Assembly (NCBI GenBank): GCA_965230905.1
Contig: OZ246396.1
Span: forward strand, 690,001-722,000
DNA length: 32,000 bases
Reading direction: 5' to 3'
Origin: Candidatus Saccharimonadota bacterium
Lineage (GTDB): Bacteria > Patescibacteriota > Gracilibacteria > UBA1369 > 2-02-FULL-48-14
The notes below the pieces were generated by a model. The model did not search any database. It was not told the origin of the DNA and worked only from the letters and a program-made list of their open reading frames with translations. The first letter of the stretch is position 1; the number at the start of each line of letters is the position of its first letter. The translations under genes and the position numbers were made by a program. This document shows, in pieces, positions 7,040-26,606 of the stretch.

Positions 7040-10000
7040 ATGAACGAAGCCGGACTAGAAGCTGCGGAGTTACTTCTTCAAGAAGGTGCGCTGGCCTTAA
7101 AGCCACGCGCAGAAGAGGGTGTGTCTGATTCTGTTCGGAATCAGACTGGCAGGAGTGTCTTACGTTTGGTTGGTGCGCCACCTACAGCAAAGGAACGTTT
7201 AGATTGCCTCGAGGAGATTGGAAACCCTGCTGACTTTGCTGAACCGGGCAGCGTTTCGTTCCAATTGATGCAAGAAGTCTATGACAATGCTCCTAAAGTG
7301 GCTCGCGAAAAGTTGACGCAGATTTTAGCTAAAGTGGCGCCACTGCACCTTCGCCCGGTGGTGGCGGCTTTGACCAAGGCTATTGAAGAGAAACGGCTTG
7401 ATGGGATGTCTTGGAAGCAGATCACGGATGGAATTAAATTGGAAATTCCGCTCCAAGGGCATGCCATTACGGTTGCGGATATCAACGGGTACACTGCGTG
7501 TTTATTGAAAGGGGAATACCACGAAAAAGTGCAGACGGCCACGGACATAGTTCGTACCTTCAATGAGGTAGCTAAAGCAACGGGTGCGGTTTTGGTGGAA
7601 CCCGTGGAAGGAGATGCGGGGATGTTCCTGACCTTCAATGCGGCTCAGCAGGTAGAGCTGGAATCTGAACTCAAGCGAAAGATTCCGATGAGAATTAAGA
7701 AACTTGAAAAAGAACTTCATGCGGATGGAACCGATAAATATCCGGTGGATCCCGAAACCGGTGAGCGGGTATTTAAGAAAAGTGTGGGAGTGGAAACTTT
7801 GAAGCAGATCCCGGGCGAGTTGAAAATGGTCGTCTATTCAGGAAAAGGGATCGCACAAGGAGCTGTGGTCGTGAGTGGGGAAGCTCGCGATGCTGCCGTT
7901 GAGTATCAGAAAAAAGCGGGTCCTGGGGAAACCCTTAAACAAGACTTGAAGGGATATGACGTAAAAAATCCAGATTGGAATAAGGATCCAGAATTGCCCG
8001 ATACTATCAACGTAGCTGTTAAATTAATTGAGGCACTTTTGAAGGTTAGTCCTTATTCAGCAGCCGCTTTTCAAGACCTCATCCATTCGTCTAAAGATGA
8101 AGGAGCTGAAGTCAGAAGCGCCAAGATGAATGCCTATTATTTGGCGCTTGAACTCAGCCCCGCTCCAGAAGACGATGCGCAAAAAGTGGACGCCTTTTGG
8201 GAGCTCCTGACTCAGGAGGGCACTGGCGATGACCGTATTCGTTTGTTTAAACCGGGTGGAAGTCGAGGTATGCATTTTTGGACGCAAGGAATCACGAGCT
8301 CAAAAGATTTTACGCAGGCCTTTGGGGCTTTCAATCAACGGATCAACCGTTTTGCTACGGAATGTGGACTCACGTTCCGCTTGAGTTTAGGGTACGAAGA
8401 TGCGCTTGAGCTTATTCTACTTCCAGACAGTTTTCAGGTGGATGCCACCGGCCCTTCCATTGTGGCAACGGTTCGTGGAATTGCGGCTTTGGAAGGGAAA
8501 GGGGATGGAAATTGGATCAGTGTGGATCGTAGCGCGGTAACGGCTATGGGTCTGGTTGGAATGGAAATGACCACCATTTATATCAAGGGGACTCCGTATC
8601 AGACGGTGCAAGGTCGCTTGGAGCCGGATGGGAAATGGGAGCTGCGAGAAAGTTTAGTTGGACGCGAAAAACAAGAGGCTGAAATAAATAGCTTTATAGC
8701 CTCCTTGGGTTTGAATGGAGTGGCACTGCGAGTGCATAAGCCTGCAAATGCAAAGGATTCCGGGTATGGAGAATCTGCGTTGCTTCGTGCTGCCGAACGT
8801 GCGGCTTCAGGTAAAGGCATTCAGGTTGTTCAATTGAAAAATAAAGAGACCTTGTTTGATGACCTTGAAGCCCAATTGGGTTATAGCTGTGAGGAACTTA
8901 TTAATAATCCTCAACTCTTAACTCGTCAGGTGCTTTTGACTTTGGATGAAGATTCTTTTAGCCCCGACTTAGCGGCTCGGCTCGACCGCTTCCTCTTTGC
9001 CATGGCGGGCACGCCTCTTGGAATTATTTACACTGGAGCCTATCAGTTCCGTCCAGAGGCCTTTATGGGAGATGCCTACAGCGGGAAAGAGCTCAGCAAA
9101 GACATTGAGGTGGATGCTCTTAGCACTGAAGCTGCTTTGGATCTTATTTTTAAAGCCCGTCCCGATTTGAAACCACAGGATCGTCCACTCATCGCTCAAT
9201 TGCTTGCAGAGTGGGGCAAGCCGCTGGTTCCACGCGCCTTGATTCGTAATTTTGCCCAGGCTTTGTTTGAGCAAGGAGACGGATGGGAACTCAAGCCGGC
9301 CCTATTGGAACAAGCCCATGCCGGAGCCTTGGATTATGCTTTGGAAGCTGCTGGTTTGAATGAAACGGATCGCACGGTTTTGGGTGTGGTTGCCGAAATA
9401 GGGTATGGAGTGCCGCTTGAATTTATACAAAATGTGCTTGGCTTTGATTGCGCTGAAGCGCTCGGTCATTTGCTGGATGAGGCTCATCCTTTCTTGGTAT
9501 TAGAAGGGGGACTTTATTCCGTTCGCGAATCGTCCAGCCGACAGGCACGGCTCTTGGCACGAAAATATCAGCCAGCCGTACATGCAGAACTCCAAAAACG
9601 CGGATTTTTGAGAGAAGATCCCGTTGTGGATGAGCAAAGTTTGGATCGAAGTATGCTTGAGTTGGAACACGCGTTGGCGCACGTTGAATCGTGTAAATCG
9701 CCTCGTACCCTTTTGCTCATGGCGCGCTTGGGACATTACTATTTGAAGGAAAGAAAAAACTTTGGCGCCGCGTACGGCCTGTACCACCGCTTCTTGGAAG
9801 CGTGTGAAGGGCATGAGCTAGATTTGGGCGGACTGCCGGAAGATTTGCTGCATGATTTGGTGTGGGCACTTTTGGAAACGTCGCACGAAAAGGACACGAA
9901 GTGGGCACAGCTTTTAATTAAAGCTCATTCTGAAGTGTCTACCCCTGAACTCATGTGGAGAGAGAAAATGAGGCTGTTGAGGCTTACGCCCAATAAAGAT

Positions 10001-11005
10001 TTAGATGATGTGCCTGAAGGAGATGCTTATAGTGCGATTGTGGCCCAGATCCGTGAGGCTTCTGAACGTTTGAATGCAAAGGGAATCACTCTACATGCTG
10101 AACTTATAAAAGACATTCAGTCTTTAGCTGCTTTCACTAAGTCCGCCCAGATGGCGAGTGAGGCAGATTCTTCGCAGGAAGTCTTGTCTCTTGCCTTTGC
10201 TGGGGCAGCGCTTTCCAGGCTTTCTTGTGCGGCTCGGCAATTGGTGCGGCTGGCAAAACTAGTCGAAAAGAAACTGCCAGAAGAGCTTGAGTTTGCTCGT
10301 GATCTTCGAGCGGCTGGATCTAGTGCTGAGTTCGACACACAAAGACGTTTGCTCTCTTTGGGAATCAATCTAGCTGGCCTGGATGCAACTTCTGGATTGG
10401 ATCAAGAGCTTATGGCAGAAATTCTCCGCTGTCTTTTAGATACTTATAAATACCTAGCGTCCACTCCAAGTGCTGAAGAGATGAATGTGATCAACCGTTA
10501 TCATGATCGTGCTGCTAAATCCTTCTCTAAATTGGAACGGCCCGTTCAGTATGCCGCCCTAGATGCATTTGATGTACAAGCTAATGCATTTGCCTTGCAC
10601 TGGCAAAGAAAATTACCTTTACCAGGAATTTTTCCAGGTGAAATAGAGTCCACGGCAACTAGTGAAGATAAAGCTGTTGTTTGGGAAGTCTTAAGTGATT
10701 TTGAAACAAAAGTACGCGTTCAATTGAATCATGCTATTCGTAATGCGCTTGTGCCGATGCGTCACCGTTTGACGCATCAACTTATGAATTTCATTCAATT
10801 AAAGATGCGCCTTCTCAAAAGAACTTTTCATGAAAATGATCGACAGTTAGTCGAAAGCTTGGATGATGAATATTTATTGCTTGCACAAGATTCTGCGCGT
10901 GTTTGTTTGCTTTTCACCGGAGAGACACAGGATGATTATTATGCATTAGAATGTGCTCCAATTAAGAAAGCCGTGGATCAAATATCCACGGCCTCTCAAG
11001 TTTAA
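7040..11005 (+). CDS. Large (1321 aa) cyclase-like / AAA_16 STAND-like / helical-repeat protein with a degenerate P-loop
   Basis: The long ORF is uninterrupted. An alternative GTG start at 6983 would overlap both divergent promoters. The motifs HAITVADINGYT...EGDAGMFLTF follow the class III cyclase pattern. LVGREKQEAEINSF, then KDSGYGES at the P-loop position, then VLLTLDEDSFSPDLAARLDRFL follow the AAA_16 pattern. The C-terminal ~550 aa are helix-rich. The domain calls come from motif reading only. Confidence 0.9.
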   Translation: MNEAGLEAAELLLQEGALALKPRAEEGVSDSVRNQTGRSVLRLVGAPPTAKERLDCLEEIGNPADFAEPGSVSFQLMQEVYDNAPKVAREKLTQILAKVAPLHLRPVVAALTKAIEEKRLDGMSWKQITDGIKLEIPLQGHAITVADINGYTACLLKGEYHEKVQTATDIVRTFNEVAKATGAVLVEPVEGDAGMFLTFNAAQQVELESELKRKIPMRIKKLEKELHADGTDKYPVDPETGERVFKKSVGVETLKQIPGELKMVVYSGKGIAQGAVVVSGEARDAAVEYQKKAGPGETLKQDLKGYDVKNPDWNKDPELPDTINVAVKLIEALLKVSPYSAAAFQDLIHSSKDEGAEVRSAKMNAYYLALELSPAPEDDAQKVDAFWELLTQEGTGDDRIRLFKPGGSRGMHFWTQGITSSKDFTQAFGAFNQRINRFATECGLTFRLSLGYEDALELILLPDSFQVDATGPSIVATVRGIAALEGKGDGNWISVDRSAVTAMGLVGMEMTTIYIKGTPYQTVQGRLEPDGKWELRESLVGREKQEAEINSFIASLGLNGVALRVHKPANAKDSGYGESALLRAAERAASGKGIQVVQLKNKETLFDDLEAQLGYSCEELINNPQLLTRQVLLTLDEDSFSPDLAARLDRFLFAMAGTPLGIIYTGAYQFRPEAFMGDAYSGKELSKDIEVDALSTEAALDLIFKARPDLKPQDRPLIAQLLAEWGKPLVPRALIRNFAQALFEQGDGWELKPALLEQAHAGALDYALEAAGLNETDRTVLGVVAEIGYGVPLEFIQNVLGFDCAEALGHLLDEAHPFLVLEGGLYSVRESSSRQARLLARKYQPAVHAELQKRGFLREDPVVDEQSLDRSMLELEHALAHVESCKSPRTLLLMARLGHYYLKERKNFGAAYGLYHRFLEACEGHELDLGGLPEDLLHDLVWALLETSHEKDTKWAQLLIKAHSEVSTPELMWREKMRLLRLTPNKDLDDVPEGDAYSAIVAQIREASERLNAKGITLHAELIKDIQSLAAFTKSAQMASEADSSQEVLSLAFAGAALSRLSCAARQLVRLAKLVEKKLPEELEFARDLRAAGSSAEFDTQRRLLSLGINLAGLDATSGLDQELMAEILRCLLDTYKYLASTPSAEEMNVINRYHDRAAKSFSKLERPVQYAALDAFDVQANAFALHWQRKLPLPGIFPGEIESTATSEDKAVVWEVLSDFETKVRVQLNHAIRNALVPMRHRLTHQLMNFIQLKMRLLKRTFHENDRQLVESLDDEYLLLAQDSARVCLLFTGETQDDYYALECAPIKKAVDQISTASQV

Positions 11006-16201: not shown

Positions 16202-16297
16202 GTGTCTTAGTTAATCTATGAAACCCTAAAGGGGTTAAGGGGAAATCCATAAAGCCTTCCAGTAATGGGGGGTTTTATGTTTAGTAGGCAAAGAGGG

Positions 16298-19541: not shown

Positions 19542-20441
19542 ATGCTTCTCGAATTTCTTCAGAAAAAAAACGTAGACCTTTCGCTCGCGGAAGTGATTGT
19601 GGAATTGGGCCGCGCGGCGGAAGAAATTGCGTCGTCCATTATTCAAGCGAGTACTAAAAAAGCCGGCAGCACCAACGCGTCCGGCGAGGAACAAATCGCC
19701 ATGGATATTTTGGCGAACGATATTTTGGTGCGCACCGTTAGCGGGAATCCGTACATCGGGGGCTACGGCAGTGAAGAAATCGATGGTTTTGAAAAAGGGC
19801 ATGAGGAAGGCATTTATAGCGTGTTCTTTGATCCGCTTGATGGCTCCAGTTTGTTTGACGTGAATTTTTCGGTGGGGACGATTGTGGGGATTTACGCGGG
19901 CAATGAAGTCCTTGGAAAAACTCCGCGCGGCCAAGTGGCCGCGCTGTACACGGTCTATGGTCCGCGCACCACAATGATGCTTACAGTGGGGCAGGGCGTG
20001 CATGAATTTTTGCTCACCGACGCGGGCTGGGAATTGCTGAATGAGGAAGTGCAACTGAGTGGCACTAAGAAATATTTTGCGCCGGGAAATTTGCGTGCGG
20101 CGCAGGAACGCGGAGATTATTTGCAGCTGGTGAATTGGTACATGAGCGAGCAGTACACACTGCGTTACAGCGGCGGAATGGTTCCCGACATCAACCACAT
20201 TTTCAAAAAAGGCAGCGGGATTTTTATGTACCCCGGCATGCCCAGCGCGCCGCAAGGAAAACTCCGGCTGCTCTACGAATGTGGGCCCATGGCATTTTTA
20301 ATGGAGCAAGCGGGCGGTGCGAGCAGTGACGGAACCAAGTCCATAATGGACGTGGAGATTTCCGAGTACCATCAACGCAGTCCAATATTTTTGGGAACCA
20401 AGAATGAAGTCGCGCGATGTGAGAAAGCCTTGAATTCCTAA
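19542..20441 (+). CDS. fbp: Fructose-1,6-bisphosphatase class 1 (299 aa from the ATG at 19542; alternative GTG at 19515 overlaps fba by 17 nt)
   Basis: GSTNASGEEQIAMDILANDIL...VFFDPLDGSSLFDVNFSVGTIVGIY...YSGGMVPDINHIFKKGSGIFMYP...GKLRLLYECGPMAFLMEQAGG match class 1 FBPase motifs. Confidence 0.93.
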   Translation: MLLEFLQKKNVDLSLAEVIVELGRAAEEIASSIIQASTKKAGSTNASGEEQIAMDILANDILVRTVSGNPYIGGYGSEEIDGFEKGHEEGIYSVFFDPLDGSSLFDVNFSVGTIVGIYAGNEVLGKTPRGQVAALYTVYGPRTTMMLTVGQGVHEFLLTDAGWELLNEEVQLSGTKKYFAPGNLRAAQERGDYLQLVNWYMSEQYTLRYSGGMVPDINHIFKKGSGIFMYPGMPSAPQGKLRLLYECGPMAFLMEQAGGASSDGTKSIMDVEISEYHQRSPIFLGTKNEVARCEKALNS

Positions 20442-20453
20442 ACAGACGTACGA

Positions 20454-20523
20454 AGACTGTCTTGGGTCGATTCAGCGGGAGCCTTTATGCTGAATCTCTC
20501 CAAGCAGTCTGAAGGCGTTTTTT
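20454..20523 (+). terminator. Long hairpin with the conserved loop GGGAGCCTTTAT (copy 1), followed by a T6 run; probable fbp terminator
   Basis: AGACTG(T)CTTGG-gtc-GATTCAGC [GGGAGCCTTTAT] GCTGAATC-tct-CCAAG-CAGTCT spans 20454..20510. TTTTTT follows at 20518..20523. The hairpin begins 12 nt after the fbp stop. Confidence 0.5.
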
Positions 20524-23051: not shown

Positions 23052-24143
23052 TCAGTCGCCCATTCCCACAAAGCCCAGGGCTAGGCCAAGGGTTGCAATC
23101 AGAGCACCTACAATCCAAAAACGCATAACCACTTGAGACTCGGGCCAGCCGAGTTGTTCAAAGTGATGGTGCAGAGGGGCGATGAGAAAGACCTTTCGGC
23201 CGAAGCATTTTTTTGACGTGAGTTGAATGATGACGGAGAGCGTTTCAATCACAAAAATAGACGCAATGAAGGGGAGGATGAGTACCGTGTTGGTGAGCAT
23301 CGCAATGACGCCCAGGGTGGCTCCCAAAGCCAGGGCGCCGGTGTCTCCCATATAAAAACGGGCCGGTGGGATATTGAACCAAAGGAAGGCTAGGGTGGCC
23401 CCGCAGATCACGGCACAGAAGGCGGCGAGTATCAAAAGGCCGTGTGCGTAGGCGAGTCCCGCGTAGGCGCCAAAGGCGATGATGATGAGGCCGCCCACGA
23501 GTCCATCGAGACCGTCGGTGAAGTTCACGGCATTTGCCGTTCCAGTGATTATGAAAACAAAGAGAGGGATGTACCAAAAATCTAGTTCAAAGTCGCCCAC
23601 GCCGGGTATGTGGATTTCGTTGTAGCCAAGTTTGTAATAGAACCACCAGCCTCCCATGAGGGCCAGCACGGTGAGCCAAAAGAATTTAGGTTTGATGTTT
23701 AAGCCTTTGCTTTGGCCCCAGCCTTTGATGTTGAAAAGGTCGTCCACCATGCCTAGTACGGCCACGGTTGCCAAGGTGAAAATGGGCAAGTAGGTTTCAC
23801 TTCGGCTGAGCAGCGAATGTTCAAAAATTCCAAAATAAGACAGGGCGCGGGAGAGCACAATGGTCACCAAAACGCTGCCCCAAATGAGTATGCCGCCCAT
23901 GGAGGGAGTGCCGGCTTTTTTTGCATGGAGAGCGTGGTAGAGATCTGCATTTTTTCCGTCGCTGGCCACCGTGCGGATGTTCTTACCCAATTTCCATTTT
24001 CGCAGGAGTCCAATAAAAGGTTCCGCAAATACATAAGCGACTAGGAAGGCCAGAAATCCGGATCCAATAATAAGGATCAGGTGCCGGACGGTGTCGGTGA
24101 TGGGGAAGTAATTACCAAACATAGGCTCTGTAAATCCAATCAA
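23052..24143 (-). CDS. mraY: Phospho-N-acetylmuramoyl-pentapeptide transferase MraY (363 aa; alternative start at 24122)
   Basis: A polytopic membrane protein with MraY motifs: MVDDLFNIKG, NAVNFTDGLDGL, MGDTGALALG and APLHHHFE. Confidence 0.95.
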   Translation of the reverse strand: MIGFTEPMFGNYFPITDTVRHLILIIGSGFLAFLVAYVFAEPFIGLLRKWKLGKNIRTVASDGKNADLYHALHAKKAGTPSMGGILIWGSVLVTIVLSRALSYFGIFEHSLLSRSETYLPIFTLATVAVLGMVDDLFNIKGWGQSKGLNIKPKFFWLTVLALMGGWWFYYKLGYNEIHIPGVGDFELDFWYIPLFVFIITGTANAVNFTDGLDGLVGGLIIIAFGAYAGLAYAHGLLILAAFCAVICGATLAFLWFNIPPARFYMGDTGALALGATLGVIAMLTNTVLILPFIASIFVIETLSVIIQLTSKKCFGRKVFLIAPLHHHFEQLGWPESQVVMRFWIVGALIATLGLALGFVGMGD

Positions 24144-24984
24144 CTAAAGTTTTGGTGTCCGTGAAGCGGCTTTTGCTGCCCAGGATCACCGTTAAAATTT
24201 CATGACCTTCCGGGCTTTCGGCCAGGGCAATTAAACATTCGCCGGCCCCCGGAGTGGTGCCCGTTTTAAATCCTTTAATGCCCAGTTCGCCGATTAAAAT
24301 ATTGGTGTTGCTCAGTTCATGTTGGTCGCCGGTTTCGCTGCTCACGGTCACGCTGCTTTGATTCACAATTTCGCGCACGCTGTCGTCTTTGAGCAGGTGA
24401 GTGGTGAGGGCGGCGAGGTCACGTGCGCTGGAAAAAGCTCCGCTGTTGTCGAGGCCATTGGCGTTTTTATAATGTGTGTCTTCCAGGCCGAGTTTATCGG
24501 CCATGGTGTTCATTTTTGCAATAAAATCTTTTTCGCTGCCGGCGTTGAATTCGGCTAAGGCAAGCGCGGCGTCATTCCCGGAAACAATCAAAAGTCCGTA
24601 CAAAAGATTCCGCACCGTGATTTGTTCACCCGCGTAGATTCCCATGCTGGAACCCGTGGCGCTGGCGGCATTGCTGCTCACGGTCACCACGGCGTTTGGG
24701 TCGTTTTCTTCCAAAACCAGTGCGGCGGTCATGAGTTTGGTGAGGCTGGCGATTGGCACGCGAGTCATAGAATTTTTCTCAAATAAAATCGCCTGGGTTT
24801 CCAAGTCCACGGCCAAAATGGTTTGAGCGGTCATGCTTCCCGGGGACACAAACTCCTCCTGTAGCACCGGTACCGAAGACACAGAGAGCAGCGTTTTATC
24901 GTTAAAAGCCACTTCACTGCCGGCTCCAAAGGACCCAAGGGTCAGACTGCTGGCGAGAAGGAGAGAGAGGAGGCTTTGGAACAT
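24112..24984 (-). CDS. D-alanyl-D-alanine carboxypeptidase (peptidase S11 / PBP5-like), 290 aa from the ATG at 24984
   Basis: SxxK (ASLTK), SGN (VSGND) and KTG (KTGTT) motifs are in the correct order. The start is chosen at MFQSLLSLLLASSLTLGSFGAG (signal peptide), because the 33-codon upstream extension in the ORF track is encoded by the palindromic element at 24995..25117. Confidence 0.9.
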   Translation of the reverse strand: MFQSLLSLLLASSLTLGSFGAGSEVAFNDKTLLSVSSVPVLQEEFVSPGSMTAQTILAVDLETQAILFEKNSMTRVPIASLTKLMTAALVLEENDPNAVVTVSSNAASATGSSMGIYAGEQITVRNLLYGLLIVSGNDAALALAEFNAGSEKDFIAKMNTMADKLGLEDTHYKNANGLDNSGAFSSARDLAALTTHLLKDDSVREIVNQSSVTVSSETGDQHELSNTNILIGELGIKGFKTGTTPGAGECLIALAESPEGHEILTVILGSKSRFTDTKTLVDWIYRAYVW

Positions 24985-24990
24985 GCAGGT

Positions 24991-25018
24991 AGTATAGACG
25001 GGAACTTTAGATTTCCAA
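24991..25018 (-). promoter_or_regulatory. dac promoter candidate embedded in one arm of the long hairpin; -10 box 6 nt from the ATG
   Basis: On the minus strand: TTGGAA (25018..25013), a 16-nt spacer, TATACT (24996..24991), then acctgc and the ATG (24984). Confidence 0.4.
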
Positions 25019-25117
25019 ATAGAATAAGAGCTTTTGTATGCGCTGTTCGCACGGGAGCCTTTATGTGCTCCCAGCGCATACAAAAGCTCTTACTTAAAAA
25101 TCTAAAGTTCCCGTCTA
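24995..25117. repeat. 123-nt near-perfect hairpin/inverted repeat with the conserved loop GGGAGCCTTTAT (copy 2)
   Basis: The 20-nt block TAGACGGGAACTTTAGATTT (24995..25014) pairs with 25098..25117. The 21-nt block TAAGAGCTTTTGTATGCGCTG (25025..25045) pairs with 25072..25092. The closing stem GCAC/GTGC encloses the loop at 25053..25064. There is an asymmetric bulge of 10 versus 5 nt. Confidence 0.9.
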
Positions 25118-25126
25118 ACGGCTATT

Positions 25127-25180
25127 GAGAAGAGGAAGGTGAGGTACATAAGGGCTCCCGTACCGAACCTCCCTCTCCTC
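25127..25180 (-). repeat. Hairpin with the conserved loop GGGAGCCCTTAT (copy 3), starting in the stop codon of the LCP gene
   Basis: On the minus strand: GAGGAGAGGGAGGTTCGGTAC [GGGAGCCCTTAT] GTACCTCACCTTCCTCTTCTC. Stem pairing is 17 of 21, and the 5 closing base pairs are perfect. Confidence 0.8.
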
Positions 25181-26606
25181 AATATATTCCAATATAAAAC
25201 AACTCGTCGTGTTCTTCGTAGAACTCTGCAAAGTCTTCGCCCAGGATGATGATGATTTTAGCTTCAGTGGGGCGGCTCACCGGCTGGTATTCGGCGGGAA
25301 CCGTGCTGGTGATTTCTCCAAAGGTCATGGTGGGCAAGAGTTCCAGCGTGGCGTCATTTCCCTCCACAAGGGAGATGATTTGCGTGTCGCTGGTTTCACG
25401 GTCGAGGGCGTTTCCGTAGCTCACCACGTTGAATCCATAACGTTTTAAATACATTTTGGTGAGTCCGGCGAGGCTGTCCTCTTTGGTTCCGTTCAGCACT
25501 TCAATGGGCACATTTCCCATGGTGATTTCAGGATGGTAGAGGAAGAGTTGAGCAAAGAGTTGGAGCTCTACAAAATTCATTTCGCCGGCGTAGGGGATGA
25601 GGTAGTACGGCTCGTTTTCTTCCCGGGGTGGAGTGTAGAGAAATCCGCCTATAGAAGTTGCGTCGTCGCTGATCACCGCAGAGAATATGGAGTCGCCGGT
25701 GAGACCTTCGGCAAAGTCCACCAAGGAGAGCATTTCATCCAGTTCCATATCGGTTTCAAAATTGGAAGATATAGCCCAGTAGAGGTCTTTGATTTGGCTT
25801 GGACTCGTCAGCATGCCCATGCTCATGGCCTTGTCTTTAATGGCGGAGATCACTTCTTGTTGGCGGCGAGCACGGTCGAAGTCGGAGGTGTTGTGGCGGC
25901 TGCGCACATACTTGAGCGCGGTTTCTCCATCGAGTTTTTGCACCCCCGCTTCCAAATAAAATGGATCGTAGAGATAGTCGGACCCGTCGGGGGCGGGGTA
26001 GGCGTCGTCAATAATGGTTTGTTCTACGTTCACGGTGATTCCGCCGAGCGCATCCACAATGTCCACAAAACCCTGGAAATCTATTTTTGCGTAGTAGTGG
26101 AGTTCCACATCGAAGACTTCCTCAATTTCTCCCCGTAGTTGATCCATGGCATAGAGCGGATCTTCGGTTTCGTCGAGCACATATTCATAAATACTGTTGA
26201 TGCGCGTGCCCCAGCCCACTTCTTCATTCTCCACATAAAAGTCGCGTGGGATGGAAATCATGGAAACGGTGTTGGTGTCGTGATCAATGGAAGCCACCAT
26301 CATGGTGTCCGTGAGGTTTTCGCCGTCGTGGCCTTCACCGCCCACTCCCACAAGGAGGACGTTGGTGTGTCCGTAGGCATCGGTTTCCACTTCCTGGCCC
26401 ACGGCTGAAATGAAAATTTGCTTAACGGAAAAAGGATTGCCATTGGCAATGGCGCCCACCACTCCTTTGAGCGTGAATAAGCCCAAAACAAGTGCCAGCA
26501 GGCTCAAGAAAATATGGCTTTTGATCCATGTCTTGGCTCCCTTGCGGTTTCTACGTGGCTCTTCGTGACGAGGAGTCTGAATAGCTCTGGTTTCGAAAGA
26601 ATTCAT
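25179..26606 (-). CDS. LytR-CpsA-Psr (LCP) family cell-envelope transferase with a C-terminal LytR_C-like domain (475 aa)
   Basis: An N-terminal TM anchor is followed by NVLLVGVGGEGHDGENLTDTMMVASIDHDTNTVSMISIPRDFYV...ALKYVRSRH...SDFDRARRQQEV, which is the LCP core pattern. Confidence 0.92.
   Translation of the reverse strand: MNSFETRAIQTPRHEEPRRNRKGAKTWIKSHIFLSLLALVLGLFTLKGVVGAIANGNPFSVKQIFISAVGQEVETDAYGHTNVLLVGVGGEGHDGENLTDTMMVASIDHDTNTVSMISIPRDFYVENEEVGWGTRINSIYEYVLDETEDPLYAMDQLRGEIEEVFDVELHYYAKIDFQGFVDIVDALGGITVNVEQTIIDDAYPAPDGSDYLYDPFYLEAGVQKLDGETALKYVRSRHNTSDFDRARRQQEVISAIKDKAMSMGMLTSPSQIKDLYWAISSNFETDMELDEMLSLVDFAEGLTGDSIFSAVISDDATSIGGFLYTPPREENEPYYLIPYAGEMNFVELQLFAQLFLYHPEITMGNVPIEVLNGTKEDSLAGLTKMYLKRYGFNVVSYGNALDRETSDTQIISLVEGNDATLELLPTMTFGEITSTVPAEYQPVSRPTEAKIIIILGEDFAEFYEEHDELFYIGIY

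Follow-up and report, generated by a model that had tools for sequence, protein, structure and literature searches.

The stretch of DNA considered here, which comprises 32,000 nucleotides and is called the window below, belongs to a 1.3-Mb groundwater MAG of a Peribacteria-type lineage (Patescibacteria/CPR), an uncultivated group whose members related to the source genome are labelled Peribacteria, Peregrinibacteria or Gracilibacteria. The string GGGAGCCYTTAT, which the first-pass annotation had described as the loop of three hairpins, is indeed found exactly three times in the window and always at a hairpin tip, at 20477-20488 (+), 25053-25064 (+) and 25148-25159 (-). The neighbours of these hairpins are core genes, namely aldolase, FBPase, an ECF sigma/anti-sigma pair, an MraY-like transferase, an S11 carboxypeptidase and LCP. 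The features discussed are the following:

19542..20441, + strand: fbp (class 1 fructose-bisphosphatase), whose 3' end (three codons and the stop) falls within the left base of copy 1
20430..20510, + strand: copy 1, a short-form "A-type" element; hairpin 20454-20510, loop 20477-20488
24112..24984, - strand: gene for a D-Ala-D-Ala carboxypeptidase (S11), located downstream of the doublet formed by copies 2 and 3
24995..25117, + strand: copy 2 (w2), a hairpin element of 123 nt; loop 25053-25064
24997..25178, no strand assigned: insertion of 182 nt with respect to three syntenic relatives, consisting of the head-to-head doublet of copy 2 and copy 3
25122..25185, - strand: copy 3 (w3), a hairpin element; loop GGGAGCCCTTAT at 25159-25148
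25179..26606, - strand: LytR-CpsA-Psr (LCP) gene, with the doublet adjoining its stop codon

A search of the window for GGGAGCCYTTAT allowing one mismatch returned four matches against 0.34 expected, a number reached by no shuffle. The three hairpins also fold more stably than shuffled sequence, with z values of -4.4 for copy 1, -12.5 for copy 2 and -6.5 for copy 3, and a scan of the window with the full covariance model retrieved these three copies only. Copy 1 has its hairpin after the fbp stop codon, as originally described, and a left base, TTGAATTCCTAAACAG, that reaches over the final codons and TAA stop of that gene; the copy lacks the outer right arm present at loci L003, L102 and L122. 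In copy 2 the perfect blocks reported earlier are real, an outer one of 20 bp and an inner one of 21 bp, and they are accompanied by an internal loop TTC/TCC and a closing helix GCAC/GTGC. The stem of copy 3 takes in the TGA stop codon of LCP, also in agreement with the initial description, together with the last codons. A fourth copy (w4) is found in the same genome 3.5 kb beyond the window, between convergent genes, and shares 24-26 nt with copies at L143, L139 and L140. A T-run follows copy 1 (TTTTTT) and w4 only, beginning in both 5-7 nt past the stem, while the other copies are devoid of a U-tract.

Two further intergenic features were recorded in the source genome. A block of 66 nt at 16216-16283 (+) of the window, ACTATGAAACCCTAAAGGGGTTAAGGGGAAATCCATAAAGCCTTCCAGTAATGGGGGGTTTTATGT, is nearly invariant in L010, L011 and L014, whereas its flanks diverge; it contains two predicted hairpins, has no Rfam match and may represent a small ncRNA or a leader after an ftsL-like ORF. 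Its second hairpin contains CATAAAGCCTTCC, a near-complement of the loop described above, a correspondence that is probably due to chance. Outside the window, at L004 12393-12420, a bidirectional hairpin of the canonical terminator type, AAAAGAGCCGCC-CGAG-GGCGGCTCTTTT, lies between convergent genes; all other strong hairpins in the 52 kb made up of the window, L004 and L007 carry the family loop. In appearance this terminator-like hairpin differs markedly from the family hairpins.

Architecture of the elements and pairing of their arms

Each element is an imperfect palindrome composed of three zones: a base, a variable middle and a conserved tip. In many copies the base carries a GGAATTC-like palindrome on both arms. 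The middle differs from one subfamily to another, with arms that remain complementary. The tip consists of a TY/TC internal loop, a closing helix of 3-8 bp and the sequence GGGAGC...YTTAT; the internal loop, found in all copies, is symmetric, 2x2 and up to 4x4, with TY (usually TC/TT) in its 5' strand and, usually, TC in its 3' strand. The closing helix covaries, occurring as AGTAC/GTACT, GCTAC/GTAGC, GCAC/GTGC, CCAC/GTGG, GATTCAGC/GCTGAATC and AAC/GTT, and its ends are AC..GT or GC..GC in all copies. Single elements measure about 60-150 bp and head-to-head doublets about 180-260 bp. The statement that the three stems are unrelated thus holds in part: the middles do differ, but the internal loop and the ends of the closing helix are common to the three copies, and the stems of copies 1 and 3 have homologues elsewhere.

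A covariance model was built from seven copies and used to align 20 distinct sequences. The proposal of compensating stems was borne out, since 92.1% of the paired cells in this alignment are complementary, compared with 66.1 +/- 2.2% in shuffles; 13 of the 15 pairs change on both sides, and pairing falls to 32-50% when partner columns are slid. The alignment is, by construction, fitted to the structure model, and a palindromic DNA repeat is inherently complementary; thus these values indicate that pairing is maintained, and do not imply that the folded molecule is RNA. Folding of the sense and antisense strands is about equal over 15 copies, the antisense being equal or better in most of them, so that nothing points specifically to RNA, and strand asymmetry of folding was discarded as a distinguishing character owing to its inconsistency across copies.

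The absence of a family assignment was confirmed, as no Rfam 15 model matched the window at its gathering score, and permissive scans of short-form, doublet and long-form loci retrieved generic miRNA-precursor models only, at 9.5-29 bits against cut-offs of 35-150. Known RNA families were rejected on this basis. A SECIS-like recoding hairpin was also rejected, the adjacent stops being TAA, TAG and TGA alike.

The covariance model also identified copies whose "loop" is interrupted by about 42 additional nucleotides, at L140 8945-9070 and L139 790-910, whose tip reads ...CAC GGGAGC, GCUUCGGGAAAGAUGCAUGAUCUUUCCCUCCGCUUCCUCUAGA, UUUAU GUG.... In such long forms an extra hairpin of 34-42 nt, GGGAGCG...GATCATGATC...CTTCC, is placed between GGGAGC and YTTAT, the latter remaining unpaired. 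A third tip type, LF3, with the core TGGGAGCGAAAGAACTCGGATCATGATCCTCGTCCTTTCTTCCTT, was found at L140 (twice), L143, L146 and L148, and also in the source genome at L004 17003-17150, where it is 98% identical over 45 nt to an L140 copy. The long form LF1 and the short forms of w4, L143 and L146 have identical flanks, CTCAGCAC...TTTATGTGCTTC, while LF3 and the B-type short form have common stems, GTGGATTT...AAATCCAC; long and short forms are therefore homologous, and the 12-nt loop corresponds to GGGAGC plus C(Y)TTAT minus the inner hairpin. From this sequence comparison, the 12-nt loop looks like the deletion remnant of a longer conserved tip, an insertion in the opposite direction being a possible alternative.

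Distribution of the copies, with filled and empty sites

The hairpin of copy 1 recurs at L102 and L122, identical over 53-54 nt and located after different genes; at both loci a second hairpin, named B, follows the copy-1-like A hairpin in opposite orientation, and the A+B doublet recurs as a unit in three contexts. The full A copies of L102 and L122 have the outer stem GAATTCCTAAACAG/CTGTTTAGGAATTC, from which it follows that the element in the window includes the fbp stop and the three codons before it. Similarly, the inner 36-37 nt of copy 3 are 94% identical to copies at L139 and L140, which come from another metagenome.

These recurrences bear on the initial view that a selected structure, and not a dispersed repeat, is present: the stem of copy 1 is found at two other loci and that of copy 3 at L139 and L140, and syntenic relatives have none of the three window copies at the corresponding sites. 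By the standard that the first-pass annotation itself had set, the opposite assignment applies, a dispersed repeat family.

Three relatives, with FBPase identities of 80-85%, have the same gene order and a hairpin at neither of the two window places. The spacer between fbp and the sigma factor gene measures 38 nt in L010 and holds no hairpin, and the S11-to-LCP spacer is 194 nt long in the window against 12-32 nt in the relatives. The 182-nt insertion is bordered on one side by the spacer sequence ...GTATA and on the other by the LCP stop codon, which reads tca on the + strand. Alignment of the three empty sites, which provides a single clean junction, revealed no direct repeat at the edges of this insertion that could represent a target-site duplication. 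Just upstream of the S11 start (24984), a sigma-70-like sequence, TTGGAA-16-TATACT, is present at 24991-25018 (-) of the window as a consensus match only; the -35-like TTGGAA of this candidate promoter lies within copy 2 and the -10-like TATACT within the ancestral spacer, so that the insertion may have supplied the S11 promoter.

The reverse situation is found at the junction between murG and a glycosyltransferase gene, which is empty in the source genome, where the two genes overlap at ATGA, and holds a doublet of a short form and LF3 in L143 and L146. Here the antisense LF3 sequence supplies a likely new start and N-terminus of the glycosyltransferase in L143 and L146. The orthologous hairpin region of the two loci is 81% identical (95/117), compared with 61% (77/127) at the four-fold sites of murG; four base pairs of the hairpin have changed on both sides, and one A of the loop is replaced by G (GGGAGCC to GGGGGCC). 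This conservation, together with the compensatory changes, indicates that both pairing and sequence were maintained after insertion, and conservation exceeding that of synonymous sites suggests selection at the level of the host, something not predicted for a purely selfish element. In-frame translation of the insertion was considered and rejected: both species have an open frame, yet homology with the empty-site protein begins only past the insertion. The filled junction is too rearranged to be read for a target-site duplication.

At other sites, w4 and LF3 have empty counterparts in L149. L147 (92% YidC identity) likewise has no element at the LF3 site, whereas L148 (87%) does, so that presence of the element does not track relatedness. 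L149 also contains, at 9840-10652 (-), a gene of the phage-integrase family two genes from ComEC, and this contig has no elements at the two sites compared.

A collection holding one genome per species was scanned with the query ACGGGAGCCYTTATGT, yielding at least 116 stretches with the 16-mer in a listing drawn from genomes other than the source. Among the matches listed, about 108 of 116 come from unrelated taxa, none on a convincing hairpin, and the hairpin-tip motif was restricted to two Peribacteria-type MAGs, CAYHHJ01 and JBAZQU01, the latter being the genome of the syntenic locus L014. Every match in CAYHHJ01 (four contigs) and in JBAZQU01 is a hairpin tip. The metagenome scan added two further hairpin copies, those of L139 and L140, with the same clade picture. 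Phage, plasmid and viral collections contained no similar sequence, and an origin from such elements was rejected on this ground. Overall, about 300 kb of sequence belonging to 5-6 related genomes contains at least 20 copies; five elements occur in 73 kb of the source genome, where four of the five strongest hairpins carry the family loop.

Doublets, gene ends and assembly breaks

Six independent head-to-head doublets were identified: w2/w3, A/B, L139, L140 after dnaE, L136 and L143/L146. Among the doublets examined there is one tandem pair and no tail-to-tail pair. Elements begin from -11 to +8 nt with respect to the upstream stop codon, and starts so close to stop codons are consistent with elements having entered spacers that measure just 4-40 nt in relatives. 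A head-to-head pair looks alike from either strand, hence the first hairpin after a gene always seems to be in "sense". The earlier suggestion that the loop is read in mRNA sense at gene 3' ends has therefore a simpler cause, very short spacers combined with doublets that are alike from both strands. A sense-strand bias at gene 3' ends was accordingly rejected: most "single" copies are halves of symmetric doublets, and the LF3 copy of the source genome is antisense to the gene preceding it. In L102 the doublet lies between divergent gene starts.

Some elements now contribute a stop or start codon to an adjoining gene: fbp owes its stop and last codons to an element, an HhH-GPD gene its 3' end and, in L143/L146, the glycosyltransferase probably its new start and N-terminus.

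Gene calls run through elements at L143 2884-4182 (-), L146 2078-3400 (+) and 24112-25083 (-) of the window. The called lengths are 432/440 aa for the glycosyltransferase, which has 355 aa where the site is empty, and 323 against 290 aa for the S11 peptidase; these extended calls probably represent over-extended N-termini. Short-read contigs also stop inside hairpins of the family, often at the palindrome centre, as observed at the end of L002, at the start of L005 and L092 and at both ends of L148. In L003 3088-3330 (an ERZ1292641 contig, coverage about 4x) fbp and the A hairpin are joined, in place of the sigma factor gene, to hairpin B and a LysM/SLT-like gene; this arrangement reflects either recombination between two A copies or chimeric assembly across the repeat.

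Nature of the family and its possible mobilisation

The three sites are best explained as members of a new, lineage-specific family of small non-coding palindromic mobile repeats, similar to REP/REPINs or MITEs, a reading to which we assign a probability of roughly 0.75. A search of the literature on Peribacteria, on MITEs in CPR and on the motif string found no relevant description.

Three other explanations have to be weighed. Location next to stop codons, strong covariation, the TTTTTT after copy 1, the better folding of copies 1 and 3 on the sense strand, with G-U pairs, and a copy in L143/L146 that is more conserved than four-fold sites and has compensatory changes would all suit host-selected RNA elements at mRNA 3' ends (a terminator, an exonuclease barrier or the site of a loop-binding protein), multiplied because they are useful. 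However, in most of 15 copies the antisense folds equally well or better, doublets are symmetric with one member always antisense, the LF3 of the source genome is antisense to the preceding gene, most copies are without a U-tract, the L102 doublet is found between divergent gene starts, and close relatives do without the elements at the same sites; this makes such a role unlikely as the origin of the family. It is compatible with mobility, and co-option of some copies by the host is possible.

Local origin of the stems, through a short core that nucleates fold-back or template switching and thus copies neighbouring sequence in inverted form with no transposition of the stem, would account for the L139 and L140 palindromes, which exceed homology with perfect outer stems of 12-18 bp of unrelated sequence, for the outer 6-7 bp of w3, which pair with ancestral LCP coding sequence, and for compensatory changes that are all exact. 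It is nevertheless distinctly improbable, since two long stems, each with both of its arms, arrived with the 182-nt insertion in a spacer that measures only 12-32 nt in relatives, so that the arms are not copies of the local flank; moreover, the A and B hairpins are found complete with their stems at loci that are unrelated, and the outer bases have a GGAATTC-like motif across loci. Local fold-back copying may add to the outward growth of the stems. Finally, the loop had been compared to a ribosome-binding site followed by a start codon (GGGAG, 5 nt, AUG), which would open small ORFs or trap ribosomes on the hairpin. The string does resemble an SD plus AUG, the L003 variant AGGAGCC keeps GGAG and the GGGGGCC of L146 retains a G-rich run, but the encoded peptides are unrelated, half of the doublet copies are antisense, and no Shine-Dalgarno sequence was found at about 50 gene starts checked in the source genome, in accordance with the first-pass annotation, which had seen none upstream of the genes. 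In addition, the long forms split the motif, with 34-42 nt between GGGAG and AUG and with GGGAG base-paired, and with this the proposal falls to a very remote standing.

Returning to the mobile repeat family, its elements would have dispersed inside the genomes of a single Peribacteria-type clade of Patescibacteria. Mobilisation would require a single strand in folded form, the tip of which, and perhaps also the base, could be read by a protein acting in trans; several master lineages could persist because the middle only has to pair. By analogy with REP/REPIN-RAYT systems, the mobiliser would be a hairpin-reading transposase acting on single-stranded DNA, the most likely type being an enzyme of the HUH/Y1 kind. 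In addition, the host itself probably retains some of the fixed copies. No transposase domain is present among the genes called in about 73 kb of the source genome (1.307-Mb contig), and no parent IS with matching ends was seen in the sequence examined; the phage, plasmid and viral collections contained no match. The palindrome sometimes exceeds homology and continues into unique flank, as in L139 compared with L140 and in w3, where pairing involves the LCP stop region; this feature is not accounted for by simple cut-and-paste of a unit of fixed extent.

Comparison with known systems reveals both likeness and difference. REP/REPIN-RAYT elements of E. coli and Pseudomonas are also short extragenic imperfect palindromes, single or in inverted doublets that appear to move as a unit; they are clade-specific, have no clear target duplication and presumably use a folded single strand as substrate. 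However, REPs conserve the stem and vary the loop, while the family described here conserves tip and base and varies the middle stem. REPs also have a 5' GTAG, whereas the closing helices here are GTAC, GCAC, CTAC, CAGC and AAC, and the halves of the present doublets fold separately, with unrelated stems. Bacterial MITEs (Correia/NEMIS, RUP, SMAG) are likewise small, non-coding, multi-copy long hairpins next to genes, able to donate promoters or codons, with short forms derived from longer ones by internal deletion; unlike them, the present family has no target-site duplication at one clean junction, and its centre is conserved more than the arms. Rickettsia palindromic elements (RPEs) are palindromic repeats of a reduced genome which can join coding sequence, but they are inserted in frame within genes and translated internally, whereas the elements described here are found at gene ends and have no sequence similarity to RPEs. 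Intrinsic (Rho-independent) terminators resemble the family in the hairpin just past the stop codon and, for copy 1, in the nearby T-run; conversely, the present stems are far longer and not GC-rich, the loop is of 12 nt, an adjacent U-tract is mostly missing and relatives do not have the hairpins at the corresponding sites. Integron attC sites were rejected, because the bases are GGAATTC-like and not GTTRRRY (RYYYAAC...GTTRRRY cores), and the neighbours are core genes in synteny, not cassettes.

More tentatively, the conserved tip (UC/UC internal loop, covarying helix, GGGAGC and unpaired YUUAU) could be the recognition module of a hairpin-specific mobilising or binding protein in Peribacterales, the elements being an active REPIN-like replicator of which some copies were co-opted by the host; this is a possibility that we regard as less probable than its negation. 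The conservation pattern, with tip and base fixed and the stem free, is the reverse of that of classical REPs and would point to a new hairpin-recognising partner protein.

Genomes of CPR/Patescibacteria are tiny and are usually thought to hold few mobile repeats; here, an apparently active palindromic repeat family reshapes gene ends and breaks assemblies at palindrome centres. The elements explain contig breaks in palindromes, possible chimeric joins such as that of L003 and over-extended ORF calls in these MAGs. If the tip is truly such a recognition module, host genes would already have co-opted copies of the element for stop codons, for a start codon and possibly for a promoter.
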